Virus record (IMG/VR): IMGVR_UViG_2713896906_000007
Coordinates: 1 to 40,423 of that record
DNA from: a virus
Lineage: Duplodnaviria; Heunggongvirae; Uroviricota; Caudoviricetes
DNA: 40,423 bases
Direction: 5' to 3' (one strand)
Shown here piece after piece: positions 1 to 6,092 of this stretch (the first letter of the stretch is position 1; each line of letters begins with the position of its first letter). The notes under the pieces were generated by a model that was not told the origin of the DNA, did no database searches, and was given only the letters and a program-made list of their open reading frames with translations. The position numbers were made by a program, and so were the translations under genes.

Positions 1-135
1 TCAAAACATGTAAAGCCTTGCAAGCCATTGTGAGGCCTTATGTGTCTCAGTTTTGTCCCACCTTGTATTATGACTTGCATAGCCAATGAAGATAAACGTG
101 ACGACAAACAGCGCAGCAGTTTTCTTTTCCTTCAT
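1..135 (-). CDS. Small hypothetical protein (44 aa) with hydrophobic N-terminus; below the ORF-track size cutoff
   Basis: Manual minus-strand translation gives MKEKKTAALFVVTFIFIGYASHNTRWDKTETHKASQWLARLYMF with ATG at 133-135 and stop at 1-3. No homology recognised. Confidence 0.25.
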   Translation of the reverse strand: MKEKKTAALFVVTFIFIGYASHNTRWDKTETHKASQWLARLYMF

Positions 136-324
136 ACTTTCCCCACCCAGCATGCATACCTTCCACCATAACTGTAGTGAATGTCTGTTATGAGCGAAAA
201 GCAGACTGTTACGTGTTGAAGTTAATTGTATTTCTTAGGTAAACACTATCATTTTCCTGACGTTAAGTTGTATCTTTGATAGGATTAAAAAATGTATAGA
301 TAACTTATACTACTGAGGAAAAAA

Positions 325-1134
325 ATGACGCAAATTAGTGAACGATGGAAGCACAATGGCATTACTAAAGGTTATTGCAATATTTGTGGAAAATATGACT
401 TCCTCACAAAAGATCATGTTCCTCCAAAGTGCGCCATAACCTTAGGTCCTGTTCTTCAGAAAACAGTTAGCGAATTTTTTGGTGTTCAGGAACCAGTTAA
501 ACCATTAAATGCTAAAAACGGTTCTTATTTCAAAACCATTTGCAGCAACTGTAACAATAAGGTGTTAGGTGGACTCGACGTTGCAATTGAAAATGTAGCA
601 AAGTCCTTTAAAGAACAGTTGAGTCAATATATGAATGGTATGAATGTATATCCATTCATTAGAATACCTTTTGATAGCATATCTTTCACTAAGGCTATGA
701 TTGGACACGTGCTATCGGCAACTTCAGTTGAAGATTGTAAAAAAGAACCCGTAGATAGCCCCTTCTATACACCTTTAAAAGATTATGTTTTGGATAAAAA
801 TCCAAGTTTTGAGGAGACTCATGATATTTACTACTGGTTTTACCCACACAGAATGCACATATCAGCTCAAAGTGTAGCATTTATGAACGAAGGACATGTA
901 GCATTTATTTGTGCTTTACATTTTTTTCCTATCGGTTTTATTATCACAATTAAAAATGAAGGAATATACCCTGCCCACTCAACAAAATTAGAACTTGAAG
1001 ATAAATTCCTTACATTTAACATGACATCTGTAAATTATGAGTATACGACATTTCCATTTGTAAATCTTAAGGGAAACCAAATGTATGCTATAAGCAACGG
1101 CCATACATGTGTGAGTTATCCAATAATTAAGTGA
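325..1134 (+). CDS. Hypothetical cargo protein with N-terminal Cys-rich HNH-like motif and a ~180 aa C-terminal domain of unknown function
   Basis: ATG at 325 preceded by GAGGA with 5-nt spacing. N-terminus reads CNICGK-x8-DHVPPKC ... CSNCNN, resembling a zinc-ribbon HNH nuclease core. AT-rich composition unlike phage structural genes. Occupies the position of mcrA in K-12 e14. Confidence 0.6.
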   Translation: MTQISERWKHNGITKGYCNICGKYDFLTKDHVPPKCAITLGPVLQKTVSEFFGVQEPVKPLNAKNGSYFKTICSNCNNKVLGGLDVAIENVAKSFKEQLSQYMNGMNVYPFIRIPFDSISFTKAMIGHVLSATSVEDCKKEPVDSPFYTPLKDYVLDKNPSFEETHDIYYWFYPHRMHISAQSVAFMNEGHVAFICALHFFPIGFIITIKNEGIYPAHSTKLELEDKFLTFNMTSVNYEYTTFPFVNLKGNQMYAISNGHTCVSYPIIK

Positions 1135-1161
1135 CTGCCAGATCATACAATCGACGCATGT

Positions 1162-1509
1162 TCACTTTCTACATATACCATCTATAATGTCCGCTCTTGG
1201 CACGCAGGGGACCAACCAGCTGGTCCTCAGGTCCGATATGAGCGAGAAGCTGAAATTTGCAGTTGTTCCCAAAGTCGATGGAGGAATTTTTAACATTACC
1301 GTGTATTTATCAACGGAGAGCAGGTCACTCTCTATGGTTCTCGCATTATTTGTTAACAAAATAACATATTCTTTTGCTTCATCGATAGTATTGAATATCA
1401 TAACTTTCCCACTTAACATCGATATCTGCGGTAACTGATTAACACAAAGAAATTCATCCAATAGCAGAGAATAACTTTGAGTTTTAGATTTTAAAAAACC
1501 TTCATCCAT
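1162..1509 (-). CDS. Small hypothetical protein overlapping the 3' end of the PIN-TM gene; possibly co-transcribed
   Basis: ATG at 1507-1509 overlaps the PIN gene stop (1491-1493) by 19 nt. No homology recognised. A competing plus-strand ORF (1187..1438) covers the same DNA, so coding status is uncertain. Confidence 0.3.
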   Translation of the reverse strand: MDEGFLKSKTQSYSLLLDEFLCVNQLPQISMLSGKVMIFNTIDEAKEYVILLTNNARTIESDLLSVDKYTVMLKIPPSTLGTTANFSFSLISDLRTSWLVPCVPRADIIDGICRK

Positions 1510-2333
1510 AATGTTTCGAGTCTTGTGCCAATCACACCTTTTCCAATGTTATCCAGCCCTCGAACCATTGCGTATAAGCCACCTAATATTTGAATCCCTT
1601 CCTTTATACCTAAAGACGAATAGTCAAAAGTTGGAAAGAGGACGTAATAAGACATAATTACCCCAATACAAAACTCGAAAACTCCATAGGAAAGACGGAA
1701 ATTTTCTCTATACCAAAATAGTATGAGTCCTAAAACGGGCAAACCCACCATTGTCCCCCAAACTGTAATGGTAGATACCAGAACCTCTATATTGGAATAG
1801 ACGATGTTTGCGACTAGAGAAGCAAGCCCGCCGAGCGCAAAACTGGCTTTTAGGTAACGCTTTTGAGATGAAACAGCTTTTTCTGCTTTCTCTTCTATTT
1901 CTTTATTTAGAAAATCGCCTTTGCTTTCATTTATAAACTCAATGCCAGTCATAGATGTAATATTCCGACTAGCAAGAAAATAAGACAAGGCACGATCATT
2001 GGTCACGACGCAAGGAACTTCTTCTCCTTGCCGTTCTGCGTAAGAAATAGCTATTCGAGCAATATCAAAGTCTGCCCCAGTCAAACGCTGAGCATTTCTA
2101 TCGGATTGGAAGAGGTCGTTTTTTATTTTTTCAGGCGCTTCAACTATGAGCACACCAGCGGGAATTGACGAGGCCACTAAATCAGTAATATCTGACCATT
2201 TGTTGCTTTTCCCTCTATATGAAAGCTCATGCATCACAGCTCTTGGGATAACTAGCTTCCGATTTCCAGCTCTAGACAATATCTCCGGATGCTGCAATAA
2301 AACATTAGTATCAATTATGTATCTGCTTGGCAT
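1491..2333 (-). CDS. PIN-domain protein with C-terminal multi-pass transmembrane region
   Basis: N-terminal ~130 aa has PIN-like acidic motifs (IIDTNVLL ... VVTNDRAL). C-terminal ~120 aa has several long hydrophobic stretches. ATG at 2331-2333 with AGGGA 7 nt upstream. AT-rich. Confidence 0.65.
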   Translation of the reverse strand: MPSRYIIDTNVLLQHPEILSRAGNRKLVIPRAVMHELSYRGKSNKWSDITDLVASSIPAGVLIVEAPEKIKNDLFQSDRNAQRLTGADFDIARIAISYAERQGEEVPCVVTNDRALSYFLASRNITSMTGIEFINESKGDFLNKEIEEKAEKAVSSQKRYLKASFALGGLASLVANIVYSNIEVLVSTITVWGTMVGLPVLGLILFWYRENFRLSYGVFEFCIGVIMSYYVLFPTFDYSSLGIKEGIQILGGLYAMVRGLDNIGKGVIGTRLETLWMKVF

Positions 2334-2671
2334 AAGCTATCCCTGATACCTTAATTTATCAAATATAACAGTATGTAAACATATAAAACATAACTTCACA
2401 ACTCACTTATCGCTGCAAGTTTCCCACCCAGACAAGCCATGTGCTTAGATATCTGACCTAACGTTTCTAAAGTGATGAATGTCCGCTATTGGCACATAGC
2501 AGTCCTAGAGACAGTGTCGTAAAGTCATGGAGGATCGGTGGGAGGATATTCAGTTTCATTCATGCCGAAATACGGTAAAATCTATAACAGATAGAAATCA
2601 TTCAATATTCGCACTATCAGAAGCTGGCCAGCCAGCCGCAGCACTTTCTTGCATACGACGAGCCTGCGGTT

Positions 2672-3226
2672 TCATTTATCTCCGACCGGAAACTTCTTAT
2701 ACAGTGTCGATACACCAACATCATAGATGATCGCCACCTTCTGGCGAGGAATTCCTGCTGCAATTAATCGTCCGGCCTGCGCCCATTGTTCTGGTGTAAG
2801 TTTGGGACGACGTCCACCAATTCGTCCCTGTACGCGAGCAGCTTCCAGTCCGGCTTTTGTTCGTTCAACAATCAGTTCACGCTCCATTTCAGCCAGGGCA
2901 CCCATCACATGGAAGAAAAAACGCCCCATTGGTGTACTGGTATCAATTGAATCCGTCAGACTACGAAAGTTGATACCTCGTTCGCGCAGCTCTTCCACCA
3001 GCACGACAAGATGCCGCATGCTGCGACCGAGTCGATCCAGTTTCCAGACCACCAGAGTGTCACCTGCCGATAATGTCCTGAGCAGTTTTTTAAGTCCCGG
3101 CCTTTCGGACTTTGTACCGCTTATCTTGTCTTCAAAAATCAGCTCGCATCCTGCACAGTTCAGCGCATTACGTTGTAGATCTGTGTTCTGGTCATTTGTT
3201 GACACACGTACATAGCCAATAAGCAT
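2672..3226 (-). CDS. pin: Serine DNA invertase (Pin/Gin/Hin/Cin family)
   Basis: Protein MLIGYVRVSTNDQNTDLQ...DTLVVWKLDRLGRSMRHL...GGRRPKLT is near-identical in motif content to e14 PinE. Start moved to the ATG at 3224-3226 (GGGAG 8 nt upstream); the track ORF begins 12 codons earlier. Confidence 0.9.
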   Translation of the reverse strand: MLIGYVRVSTNDQNTDLQRNALNCAGCELIFEDKISGTKSERPGLKKLLRTLSAGDTLVVWKLDRLGRSMRHLVVLVEELRERGINFRSLTDSIDTSTPMGRFFFHVMGALAEMERELIVERTKAGLEAARVQGRIGGRRPKLTPEQWAQAGRLIAAGIPRQKVAIIYDVGVSTLYKKFPVGDK

Positions 3227-3281
3227 GGTAGATCTCCCTGACAAAAGCAGGAATGATGCCATTTGCTCGTTATTTCTGCAT

Positions 3282-3307
3282 TTTCATAAACGTTGGTTTG
3301 GGAGAAG
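3282..3307. repeat. Left crossover site of the Pin-invertible segment (gix/cix-like)
   Basis: ttggtttgggagaag at 3294-3308 is the exact reverse complement of 5201-5215. The core aaacc-NN-ggttt is typical of Gin/Cin/Pin sites. Lies just upstream of the pin start. Confidence 0.6.
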
Positions 3308-3666
3308 CGGCAAAACGGGATGTGGGGACAGGGGAAAATCAGATACCGGACATGACCTCTTTTGCCAGTGGTGATGGATGGATGAAATTACCCAACGGGA
3401 AAATCCTGCAATATGGTCGTGGTGCGGTTACGCCGACATTATCGACGCAAACAATGAGAATTACATTCAGCATCCCTTTCCCCAAAAAAGCGGACTGCGC
3501 CATGCTTACTCATTCTGGTGATGGCGGTGCGCCTTTAGGCGCTGGGCGAGGGTTCGTGATGACTGCAGAAGGCCCAACGTTAACCGACTTTAATTCTGCT
3601 TACAGAACGTCATCAACCAGCGACACGGTATCGATGAATTACAGTTGGTGGGCTGTTGGTGAGTAA
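3295..3666 (+). CDS. Alternative tail-fibre C-terminal variable cassette (promoterless in this orientation; fused to the constant N-terminus after inversion)
   Basis: In-frame GLGE codons at the crossover site followed by 124 codons. The track ORF 3253..3666 starts outside the invertible segment and is probably not translated as such. Confidence 0.55.
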   Translation, partial: GLGEAAKRDVGTGENQIPDMTSFASGDGWMKLPNGKILQYGRGAVTPTLSTQTMRITFSIPFPKKADCAMLTHSGDGGAPLGAGRGFVMTAEGPTLTDFNSAYRTSSTSDTVSMNYSWWAVGE

Positions 3667-3686
3667 TTTTATTCAGGGTGATTTAT

Positions 3687-4130
3687 ATGAACGAATATGT
3701 TTATAGCGCAAGGCATAATGCTTTTTTCCCTGTGGATATGATTGATAAATATAAATCAGAGGGATGGGATTTATCAGACGCTAAGGAAGTAAATCAAAAT
3801 ATTATCAGTGAGTTTATGGCTGAACCGCCACAAGGAAAAATCCGTATTGCCGGAGATGATGGGCTGCCTGCGTGGGCAGATATTCCGCCACCCACGCATG
3901 AAGAACTTATTGAAATTACTGAATCAGAAAGACAGCTACTAATTAACCAGGCCAACGAATACATGAACAGTAAGCAATGGCCCGGTAAAGCCGCTATTGG
4001 TCGTCTGAAAGATGATGAACTGGCGCAATATAATTTGTGGCTGGATTATCTGGACGCACTGGAACTGGTTGATTCCTCCAGTGCGCCAGATATTGAATGG
4101 CCTACGCCTCCGGCAGTTCAGGCCAGATGA
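3687..4130 (+). CDS. tfa: Tail fibre assembly protein (Tfa / Mu U-like), alternate-orientation copy
   Basis: ATG at 3687 with AGGGTG 6 nt upstream (track start at 3678 is GTG). C-terminus ...APDIEWPTPP mirrors that of the convergent tfa copy. Confidence 0.75.
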   Translation: MNEYVYSARHNAFFPVDMIDKYKSEGWDLSDAKEVNQNIISEFMAEPPQGKIRIAGDDGLPAWADIPPPTHEELIEITESERQLLINQANEYMNSKQWPGKAAIGRLKDDELAQYNLWLDYLDALELVDSSSAPDIEWPTPPAVQAR

Positions 4131-4704
4131 CATCCGGCGCGGTGCTGGTATCTGTTGCCGTCACCGCGTCAATGTAATCCAGCACAGCGTTAAGTCGGGT
4201 GGTTTCTGCCTGCGTCAGCTTCCGTCCGGCCTGTAGTTTCAGTTGAATCAGACTAATGGAAGCCATTGCTGCATCAATAAGTGACTGGCGCAGTGCTTCT
4301 GCCGCGTCTACTGCGGCATTATGCTGTGCCTCAGTATCTGTCACCCATTTCTCACCATCCCATTTATCGTATGGCGTTAATGGGGCGATAGTGGTTGTAT
4401 TATTAGGGTAATCACCCGGAGCTGTGATTTCTTTTGATTCTCCTGTTTCGGTGCTATAGATGATTTCACCGCGATGGTCTGGCACATATTCCCATGAGTT
4501 AAAATCTGCAGAACGGCAGATTGCATAACCAGCTTTATGTGTAACTGGTGCATCTAAACAAGAACATGCCGGGATACCGACGCCAACCGCAAGATATTCA
4601 GTTGATGTGGAAATATACTCCCGCGTTTCACCATCATAATTATAAATGGTAATGACTCCCGCTTTTATGGCAATGAGTTCGTTATTTAATACGGCTTTAT
4701 TCAT
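4102..4704 (-). CDS. tfa: Tail fibre assembly protein (Tfa), copy expressed in the current orientation
   Basis: Immediately follows the tail-fibre CDS on the minus strand (start overlaps the fibre stop). Tfa-like C-terminus ...APDVIWPELPEA. Overlaps the convergent tfa 3' end by 29 nt. Confidence 0.8.
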   Translation of the reverse strand: MNKAVLNNELIAIKAGVITIYNYDGETREYISTSTEYLAVGVGIPACSCLDAPVTHKAGYAICRSADFNSWEYVPDHRGEIIYSTETGESKEITAPGDYPNNTTTIAPLTPYDKWDGEKWVTDTEAQHNAAVDAAEALRQSLIDAAMASISLIQLKLQAGRKLTQAETTRLNAVLDYIDAVTATDTSTAPDVIWPELPEA

Positions 4705-5504
4705 CAGGCAGCCCTCACGATATAATTAAAGGCAATGTTACGAGGACGGTTTTCGTTTGCAGTTGGAACAATTCTTGAAGCATCAAGGCCAATCACTTTT
4801 GGGTAAACAGCGCCATCTGTTCTTTCTGTCACCATACTTCTGATTAAGGAGAAATAACTATTGTTCGTTGAGGGGTTCAAAGGCACCACTGCCCCCTTAA
4901 AAGAGCCTACTGATTCCCATATTGAATAATTTTCGGTGTTTACAGTCTTGAACTCACCATAGATATTACGTATGGCATCGCCCTGAGCGGATAATATTGC
5001 CCTCCCCGTATCCATACCACGTCCGTCATCCCAGCCACGAATAAACTCACCACGTAAATCAGGCAATTTATTTGTCGGGTAAGCCTTTGCCAGTTCCGGG
5101 TATTCTTCAGCAGAAAAAGCTGCTCCGTTGCATTTCAGCCAGCCTGTTGGCGGAGTGGCTGAGGGCCACGGAACAGGTACGCCAACAGGCAATGCTGAGC
5201 CTTCTCCCAAACCAAGGTTTTCGAGAGCCGTTTTCACCGTGCCATCCGATTTGATATCGCCAAACGGATTCTTGCGGCTTAACAGCAGCGCACGAAGCGC
5301 GGTAAGCAGCTGGTCATGCCGCCCCTTATCCAGGCTGGCACCGGATGCCTCCACCACGCTGCAGAGTTCTTCCTGCAACATGTCAAAGTAGTCATCATCC
5401 AGATCGGTGGCAGGTGTGCCGGTCTGGGGGTTACCACGGGTAAAACCGTTCTTACCCGCGCCGAACTTATCCTTCTGCGCGGTTTTCGTGTCTATACGAT
5501 GCAT
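4704..5504 (-). CDS. stf: Side tail fibre protein (constant N-terminus + invertible variable C-terminus)
   Basis: N-terminus [40 protein letters not shown] matches the e14 StfE/StfP constant region. The crossover site lies at codons 95-102. Confidence 0.8.
5202..5227. repeat. Right crossover site of the Pin-invertible segment, inside the tail-fibre gene at the constant/variable junction
   Basis: cttctcccaaaccaaggttttc sits in codons 95-102 (ENLGLGEG) of the tail-fibre CDS. It is a 15-bp perfect inverted repeat of 3294-3308. Confidence 0.6.
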
Positions 5505-5507
5505 GGA

Positions 5508-6092
5508 TTACTCCGGATATTTAAAAATTACGTAGGTATGCGAAGGGCAGAGTTTGTTAAGCACACACTCGACAACGGTGTCGCCCCAGATACGCAGCGC
5601 GGAATCACAGGGATCGCCACATGTCATCCAGGTGCTGTTGGTGGTGGCTGGCATGTTGACCTGCCAGTAATACCGCCATTCCGGCGCATTCACCGCGTCA
5701 GTACAGGCCGATGAGCAGGTGAACGTGCTTTTGTCGTATCGCGTGATGGTGGCATCTGGTCTGCCCAGGGCAGCAAGCTGTGCAAGATAAAAATCCTCGT
5801 TGATGCCGCCCGTCAGGTTAACCTTCGCATCCAGCCGTTGCTGACGCTGGCGAAGGGTCTGCGTTCCCGCCGGAATACATTCATCCGGCAGACCGCACAG
5901 ACGCTCCCAGCGGTTTATCAGTTCAGTGGTGGTGCGCGGATCCAGCTCCCGCATCAGGGCATCCGCACGCTGATGAACGCGGGTTAATGACGGTGCCGCA
6001 CCGGCAATCGCCGGATCGCTGGCTGACCACGCCGGACCGGGGGGCAACAGTGCCGACAACAGACGGATGTAATCATCGTTTGTCACGTCCAT
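5508..6092 (-). CDS. Tail protein, YmfQ / Mu gp48-like (DUF2313)
   Basis: 194 aa, same length as e14 YmfQ. Sits between baseplate J and the tail fibre. Confidence 0.7.

Follow-up and report, generated by a model that had tools for sequence, protein, structure and literature searches.

Tyrosine recombinases usually act at core sites in which two inverted half-sites surround an asymmetric centre. On Acinetobacter plasmids, XerC/XerD-type sites flank the resistance and toxin–antitoxin modules known as pdif modules, and engineered cassette exchange with heterospecific lox or FRT sites is a laboratory design in which the sites share their arms and differ in their centres. In phage P2, inverted repeats at the Z/fun region were reported by Nilsson, Karlsson and Haggard-Ljungquist (2004, Mol Biol Evol 21:1), and site-specific recombination with exchange with bacterial genomes was proposed in that work, as related in a citing paper (PMC8987985). 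Surveys of the P2/P4 hotspots found that defence loci are swapped extremely fast, also with unrelated mobile elements, and called the mechanism unknown, since hardly any transposons are found and there are no homologous flanks (PMC13586616). A 2026 paper linked small serine recombinases to defence loci and proposed no sites. In T4-type phages, promoter–stem-loop boxes (PeSLs) flank variable genes and are held responsible for modular shuffling that is thought to be based on homologous recombination (PMC2839356). The present study concerns a window of 40,423 nt, i.e. the whole stretch of DNA that was analysed (positions 1–40,423 of IMG/VR virus record IMGVR_UViG_2713896906_000007, Caudoviricetes), and two related 24-bp sites in it, here called S and W. 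As judged from comparative sequence, these are probably recombination-type sites that bracket swappable cassettes of the form S–cargo–W, joined as W–18 nt–S, with two cassettes stacked in the window, one carrying a gene for a 269-aa protein and the other a PIN-TM gene. The hotspot papers of 2022–2026 that were searched make no mention of repeats, hairpins, recombination sites, a two-site grammar, an 18-nt junction, centre-mapped junctions or a recombinase link. The two-site grammar and the link to a recombinase are possibly the new part, the 2004 work on P2 fun being known to us through papers that cite it.

Repeat Pair, Site Anatomy and Layout

The first-pass annotation of the window had noted two imperfect 22-bp direct repeats, and it is borne out that these bracket, in the same orientation, the PIN-TM gene and its small downstream open reading frame (ORF). 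The copies lie on the + strand at nt 1186–1207 and 2478–2499; the right-hand coordinates were correct as given, while the left copy had been placed one base too low (1185–1206), and a recount gives an identity of 19/22 (mismatches at positions 11, 19 and 20) rather than 20/22. No further copy with up to three mismatches exists in the 40.4-kb window, nor was a third copy or a prophage att core found there, and dinucleotide-preserving shuffles of the window gave 0/100 with any 22-mer match (chance expectation 0.00), which argues against a common chance motif. The conserved unit is larger than the 22-mer, namely 24 bp at 1189–1212 and 2481–2504, with diverged 3′ arms (GCAGGGGAC at 1204–1212 and ATAGCAGTC at 2496–2504). 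Each 22-mer belongs to one copy of the 24-bp site W, of which it covers the left arm and the centre; the left one consists of AAT, the left arm and centre of the first W, and the first four bases of its right arm. The direct repeat is thus a by-product of the stacking of two S–cargo–W modules.

W has the consensus GTCCGCTnT-TGGCAC-nnAGCGGAC, with 9-bp inverted arms (GTCCGCTnT / AnAGCGGAC) and an asymmetric 6-bp centre, TGGCAC. In P2-like phages it is a perfect 24-bp palindromic unit, GTCCGCTCT-TGGCAC-AGAGCGGAC. The sister site S has arms as in W and the centre GAGCGA, and is roughly an inverted W (the W centre reads GTGCCA on the other strand).

A tolerant scan of the window returned four units, all co-oriented (S1, W1, S2 and W2), and the layout is S, the 269-aa ORF (+), W–18 nt–S, the small ORF with the PIN-TM gene (−), W and the pin invertase. 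The two cassettes are joined by a 66-bp composite junction. S1 (nt 183–206, +; GTCTGTTAT-GAGCGA-AAAGCAGAC) forms the left edge of cassette 1 and has three mismatches to the S consensus. It is followed by the cargo of cassette 1 (nt 207–1188, +), with the 269-aa ORF at 325–1134, and by W1 (nt 1189–1212, +; GTCCGCTCT-TGGCAC-GCAGGGGAC) as the right edge. The 18-nt spacer (nt 1213–1230, +) of the W–18–S junction separates W1 from S2 (nt 1231–1254, +; GTCCGATAT-GAGCGA-GAAGCTGAA), the left edge of cassette 2. The cargo of cassette 2 (nt 1255–2480, −) comprises the PIN_4-domain gene (1491–2333) and the overlapping small ORF (1162–1509), and W2 (nt 2481–2504, +; GTCCGCTAT-TGGCAC-ATAGCAGTC) closes it on the right. 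The palindrome GGACCA-N6-TGGTCC that had been noticed next to the left repeat is present at 1209–1226, where the spacer forms it together with the last four bases of W1, and the GC-rich setting of that repeat was also confirmed, 1189–1254 having 60.6% GC compared with 33.6% and 38.2% in the cargo of cassettes 1 and 2. The 18-nt spacing (42 nt start-to-start) is seen again in loci L001, L014, L047, L057, L092, L101 and L114 and many others.

Recurrence of the Sites and Position of the Junctions

The S/W grammar recurs in most of about 240 public loci, and a count over the 1.19 Mb of loci that a loose pattern had retrieved gave 354 site units, where shuffled sequence gave 1. The sites turn up in P2-like hotspots, in lambdoid hokD-DUF977 hotspots, on plasmids and in genomic islands. 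S–cargo–W is the layout seen most often (64 loci in the enlarged set), nearly all units within a locus are co-oriented, and arrays reach three complete cassettes (seven sites), with W–S spacers of 15–19 nt, mostly 18. The 127 S..W intervals fall into 84 cargo clusters and measure 0.3–4.7 kb (median 1.6 kb, 40% GC); relative to the S-to-W direction, the longest ORF is on the minus strand in 46 and on the plus strand in 38.

Where the homology between loci begins and ends was assessed by comparing arms in pairs of units that share one flank only. W pairs with a common right flank (n = 155) have 0.17 base differences in the right arm and 2.02 in the left (1.74 between unrelated units), and for S pairs with a common left flank (n = 286) the values are 0.05 for the left arm and 2.40 for the right. 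The reciprocal flank classes give the same pattern. Each arm moves with its own flank, and the alignments therefore place the switch in inter-locus homology between positions 9 and 16, i.e. in the 6-bp centre, for both S and W.

The window provides its own examples. S1 combines a left arm of the backbone with a right arm of the cargo: the former, GTCTGTTAT, is typical of the backbone of this prophage family and is also present in the relatives L003 and L017, there with different right arms and cargo, and the latter travels with the cargo. W1 joins the left arm of the 269-aa cassette to the right arm of the PIN cassette, its left arm and centre going with the 269-aa cargo and the sequence from the right arm onward going with the PIN cassette, as in L001, where a counterpart of S2 adjoins the same cargo (4043–4066). 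The right arm of W2 is the backbone arm of the hotspot downstream of pin, and the same arm and flank are found with different cargo in L003, L017 and L119.

Outside the enterobacteria, the exact W pattern is abundant in soil Alphaproteobacteria (Pseudolabrys, Xanthobacteraceae) as a dispersed intergenic element. The pattern has 21 specified bases, so that by chance it should occur less than once in the genome collection. These copies (L126–L245) are multi-copy and exact over 24 bp, as at 278–301, 5720–5743 and 7780–7803 of L168, and W is followed about 21 nt downstream by another unit whose arms are the same but whose centre is TGACCC or CGGGGGT, giving a doublet that resembles the enterobacterial W–18–S junction. 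An HUH-type transposase was not found in the alphaproteobacterial W loci, where clustering of all ORFs gave ordinary paralogous families only.

The Two Cassettes in Other Genomes

The break-points of megablast matches to the window coincide with the S and W sites. E. coli ZH177 has the PIN block (nt 1189–2500) in a P2-like prophage, 97.6% identical and with the homology ending in the repeats; the suggestion of the first-pass annotation that the repeats mark the ends of a cassette of about 1.3 kb was correct in this respect. The place of the block in ZH177 is the G-FI (Z/fun) hotspot, where its neighbour is a SIR2 cassette and the same W–18–S junction stands on its left. The PIN cargo was found in only one other complete E. 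coli genome, ZH177 itself (98% identity). The alignment to relatives that lack the PIN gene, proposed at the same time, shows a single W at the pin-proximal edge in phi458 (L003), L017 and L119; these prophage relatives (phi458 and two IMG/VR contigs) share nt 1–205 and 2478–2678 of the window and carry a single S–cargo–W unit with different cargo.

Of 5426 complete E. coli genomes, 141 have the 269-aa cassette, in P2-like or lambdoid surroundings or on plasmids. P2-like type-B backbones have it at about 94% identity from S to W (nt 183–1218), the homology to cassette 1 beginning at 183, and nt 241–1212 are 97.5% identical in phage pro147. In the lambdoid hokD-DUF977 hotspot and on a plasmid, S and W are again at its edges.

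The 269-aa gene also recurs next to a recombinase gene in island L522. Neighbouring S–W cassettes (L001, nt 2838–3746; L437–L441; L522) carry SIR2-family, TIR-like, SMC/AAA, DUF3800 and dynamin/patatin genes, and the S–W arrays are consistent with reservoirs of defence-type genes.

A Candidate Recombinase

On plasmid p84_MLI104-1, a gene for a 200-aa ‘site-specific integrase’ lies between the W and the S that border two cassettes. Pfam recognises in the protein the PF00589 catalytic domain only. WP_001752951.1 (L362, nt 4519–5121) is one example of the 200-aa recombinase. Its scores with the XerA/integron-integrase (53.6 bits, cut-off 220), XerC (47) and XerD (29) models are all far below cut-off, as are those with tyrosine-invertase models; sequence searches gave no relative in the PDB, and the GenBank phage set held no close relatives from isolated E. 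coli phages. Homologues (tBLASTn, all fetched loci) are found next to the sites in enterobacterial loci and, at 51–56% identity, in two alphaproteobacterial loci, with a W half-site at a fixed offset.

When loci were retrieved by the protein alone, homologues of at least 82% identity had the W centre and outer arm 25–27 nt after the stop codon in 16/16 distinct contexts, and the S outer arm and centre ending 48–51 nt before the start codon in nine of the 16, compared with a background of about 0.009 (W) and 0.005 (S) half-site motifs per 100 nt. A strict W half-site is present 44–58 nt after the stop codon in 16 of 73 environmental homologues of the alphaproteobacterial version, and no S or W sites were found near the 60–64%-identical homologues in IMG/VR. 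The protein family is very large, and the gene occurs in 876/5426 E. coli genomes (16%). At Proteus prophage ends (near icd, invertase and tail-fibre genes) the recombinase module stands beside cargo with TIR, SIR2 or SMC-type domains, in marine gammaproteobacterial islands the W half-site beside the recombinase is kept, and a Qin-type prophage array that includes the gene reads S–cargo–[recombinase]–S–cargo–W–18–S–cargo–W. E. coli EC195 and DA61218 are examples of strains in which both arrays and the recombinase are present. There is about an even chance, on this comparative evidence, that the small tyrosine recombinase is the catalyst.

Some features of the recombinase loci were noted in passing. 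The gap of 39–45 nt between S and the start of the gene (L362, nt 5122–5160; L437–L441, about 4955–5000) has a 12-bp inverted repeat that overlaps the ribosome-binding region (ACTCAAATCTCC...GGAGATTTGAGT; in Proteus AATTAAATCTC...GGAGATTTAATT), and a second small hairpin downstream of the gene overlaps the inner arm of W; these hairpins are possible control elements. Many prophage contigs (L408–L430) hold only fragments of the gene (residues 25–103, 162–200 etc.), and in L062 its first nine codons or so run directly into W, which looks like truncation of the gene by recombination there.

Alternative Explanations

The alternative that survives best, which we nevertheless regard as unlikely, is that S and W are conserved boxes of 24–66 bp providing short homologies for RecA or for annealing of the Red/RecT/Erf type, with no dedicated enzyme. 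It would account for the exchange of cassettes between elements that otherwise share little, for the fact that most arrays are without a recombinase gene and for the one imprecise edge (pro147, see below), and it has an analogy in the mobile regulatory cassettes (promoter–stem-loop boxes) of T4-type phages (PMC2839356). Crossovers by short homology, however, should spread over the whole 24 bp, and those observed fall between positions 9 and 16, the arms staying with their flanks. Neither the conservation of the 24-mer from enterobacterial phages to soil Alphaproteobacteria nor the linkage to a recombinase gene at fixed distance is explained in this way.

That the palindromes are hairpins or operators (bidirectional terminators or insulators, REP-like stabilisers of mRNA, or regulator sites), placed at module edges merely because these are intergenic DNA, is quite improbable. 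In P2-like backbones W, which follows gene G by about 60 bp, makes a 9-bp stem without mismatch around a 6-nt loop, and these perfect copies fold better than shuffles (z −3.5 and −2.4); the alphaproteobacterial unit, moreover, is dispersed between genes as a doublet, often behind genuine terminators. The window copies, on the other hand, show no folding advantage over shuffles (z +0.66 and +0.12), no Rfam family matched the sites at E ≤ 1, and a scan for rho-independent terminators called none at 183–206, 1189–1254 or 2481–2504, where there is no U-tract. Complementarity between the arms was the same as when right arms were re-dealt among units (W, 674 vs 673 ± 7; S, 640 vs 635 ± 5), and covariation of the arms was absent from both the enterobacterial and the environmental sets, which speaks against a selected hairpin. 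The paired regulator-binding sites offered as a second option in the first-pass annotation found no support, as a site may precede one cargo gene and follow another, whatever the orientation of the gene, and inter-locus homology breaks inside them. The break inside the centre is left unexplained by a hairpin or operator, a role that could nevertheless coexist with recombination. Since the arms are conserved as sequences and not as pairs, inverted protein half-sites paired around an asymmetric centre appear to fit better than a selected RNA or DNA hairpin. A sigma-54 promoter reading of TGGCAC was rejected on inspection, there being no TTGC-type −12 element at the right spacing.

A PIN-carrying transposon with target-site duplications or terminal repeats, or a chance match, would agree with same-orientation repeats around a low-GC insert of 1.3 kb but is scarcely tenable: nt 1–3300 hold no transposase, there are no transposon ends, the shuffles contradict chance, the two 22-mer copies belong to two different cassettes, and the same 24-bp sequence is at hundreds of unrelated cassette edges, always with an S partner, so that the duplicated insertion site envisaged earlier fails even though the cassette ends were correctly drawn.

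Several points weigh against recombination at S and W, the whole case for which is built from comparative sequence. The pairs used to map the junctions are not phylogenetically independent, and the detection motif itself accounts in part for the invariance of the centre, although not for the segregation of arms with flanks. One cassette edge is imprecise, the pro147 copy of the 269-aa block starting at 241 without the S site. In the window, the right arms of W1, S2 and W2 are degraded, and because of this the copies there may be relics that are no longer active. No copy of the recombinase gene was found in the window by tBLASTn, and only a few per cent of the fetched site-containing loci have one; its linkage to the sites would also arise if the gene were a mere passenger at the junction. 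What the compared loci do show is the architecture of the sites, their recurrence, the identities of the cassettes, the confinement of junctions to the centre and the linkage of gene and site.

Proposed Mechanism and Comparison with Known Systems

If S and W are recombination sites, cargo would be swapped by paired S × S and W × W crossovers, a natural form of cassette exchange between two sites that do not cross-react. Recombination between S and W would be blocked because they have shared arms but different centres and are mutually inverted, leaving the cargo stable yet exchangeable. Stacking would follow from insertion of a [W–18–S–cargo] unit at an existing W. The proposed enzyme is the 200-aa, Xer-like tyrosine recombinase with a catalytic domain only, which, as it is not encoded in the window, would have to act there in trans or to have acted in the past. 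A broader proposal, to which we give slightly less than an even chance, holds that S and W are the two non-cross-reacting sites of a widespread cassette system whose recombinase moves, swaps and stacks single-function cargo among P2-like phages, lambdoid and other prophages, plasmids and genomic islands. The same proposal, with the same reserve, has the recombinase spread across Gamma-, Beta- and Alphaproteobacteria, many of the cargo modules defence-like, and the sites multiplied as REP-like doublets in some soil Alphaproteobacteria.

The window alone is an ordinary instance of the S/W system. Were the proposal true, it would add a second cassette platform, independent of integrons, and provide what is missing to explain the rapid swapping at defence hotspots; the site pair, the centre-confined junctions and the linked recombinase together make this mechanism concrete and testable. 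As a sequence signature, S and W can be used to delimit cargo modules and to search any genome for further candidate defence genes, of which the window offers two, the PIN-TM gene and the 269-aa gene.

Among the closest described systems is the P2 Z/fun region, whose G-FI hotspot (L001, L002 and L005) has at its edges the sequences found as sites in the window, and the window copies align to them. W stands about 60 bp after gene G in L001 and L002, and the edge next to FI has S in L001, in L113 and in P2 itself (L005). The window array differs in that it is not situated between G and FI of a P2-like phage. With a generic core site of a tyrosine recombinase there is agreement in the 9-6-9 geometry and in the confinement of junctions to the centre, and the linkage to a recombinase gene is statistically strong. 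The geometry is also similar to the two inverted arms of about 11 bp around a 6-bp centre of Xer/dif sites, while the arm GTCCGCT, on direct reading, appears unlike the XerC/XerD half-sites of dif, cer and psi. The pdif modules share with the S/W system discrete modules of 1–3 kb, oppositely oriented core-type sites, a 6-bp centre and the occurrence of the same modules in many backbones. They differ in that S/W modules are joined by two sites and an 18-nt spacer, not by one shared site, and in the linked gene for a dedicated small recombinase.

Integrons resemble the S/W system in their arrays of short single-function cassettes, imperfectly palindromic sites, a tyrosine recombinase (here a candidate) and some defence-like cargo, and the many S/W arrays without a recombinase gene are comparable to attC clusters lacking an integrase. 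An S/W junction, in contrast, consists of two 24-bp sites with different centres rather than one attC of 57–141 bp; on direct reading the sites have no GTTRRRY core, the cargo is of mixed orientation (46/38) and there is no common promoter. The linked recombinase, at 200 aa, is below the IntI model cut-off, and there is no covariation that would indicate a folded single-strand substrate. PeSLs are likewise short conserved boxes, with stem-loops, around variable genes, but S and W are without promoter or terminator character and have their junctions confined to the 6-bp centre. By analogy with heterospecific lox or FRT sites, cargo between S and W, which have shared arms and different centres, would be protected from excision and inversion and remain open to exchange. 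The alphaproteobacterial W is dispersed and intergenic, as are REP/BIME elements with RAYT, but the gene flanked by S and W is a tyrosine recombinase (PF00589) and not of the HUH type, and covariation is absent. The W centre (nt 1198–1203 and 2490–2495 of the window) and the next base, read on the opposite strand, give GTGCCAA, the 7-bp core of the sfx sites of the R64 shufflon, which the tyrosine recombinase Rci uses; this may point to a link.

Cargo Genes and Prophage Neighbourhood

The 269-aa protein (+ strand) is labelled ‘chaperonin’ or ‘metal-binding domain protein’ in public records and had no match in Pfam or PADLOC. The PIN-TM protein (−) has a PIN_4 domain (Pfam, E = 3.8e-11), and its C-terminal half is hydrophobic. 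Defence annotation of the window cargo gave no PADLOC match, and PIN_4 is the sole Pfam match. The small ORF downstream of the PIN gene (−, 115 aa) overlaps it by 19 nt, and its last 30 or so codons run through the S2–spacer–W1 junction. Relatives in its cluster have 78–79 aa, and it is unannotated by RefSeq in ZH177; its reality or its length is doubtful, and the true gene, if any, is probably shorter.

The array has the pin invertase on one side and, on the other, a small membrane ORF at the end of the prophage, whose integrase is of the lambda type. Judged from the int/attP record of phage 21, this is the end of the prophage opposite the integrase (nt 39,260–40,423). The first 200 bases or so contain a hydrophobic ORF of 50 aa (−), and nt 1–205 have 85–95% identity to phage 21, to lambda-hybrid phages and to many E. 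coli prophages, the homology stopping at S1. On the other side of the array, a Pin/Gin-type serine DNA invertase (nt 2672–3262, −; Resolvase and HTH_7 in Pfam) belongs to the backbone flank and is outside the cassette system. Its crossover sites, the inverted repeats at 3288–3307 and 5201–5220, have no similarity to S or W, and a Hin/Gin/Cin/Pin crossover site was accordingly rejected as an identity for the latter, whose cargo was not seen inverted. The adjoining 1.9-kb segment has 20-bp inverted repeats at its ends (95% complementary) and contains, on opposite strands, alternative tail-fibre C-termini together with genes for tail-fibre assembly, and looks like an invertible host-range switch. 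At nt 32,974–33,048, within a long ORF on the − strand, there are four head-to-tail 15-bp repeats similar to CAGATTTTGACGNGT, which look like the iterons of a replication origin.

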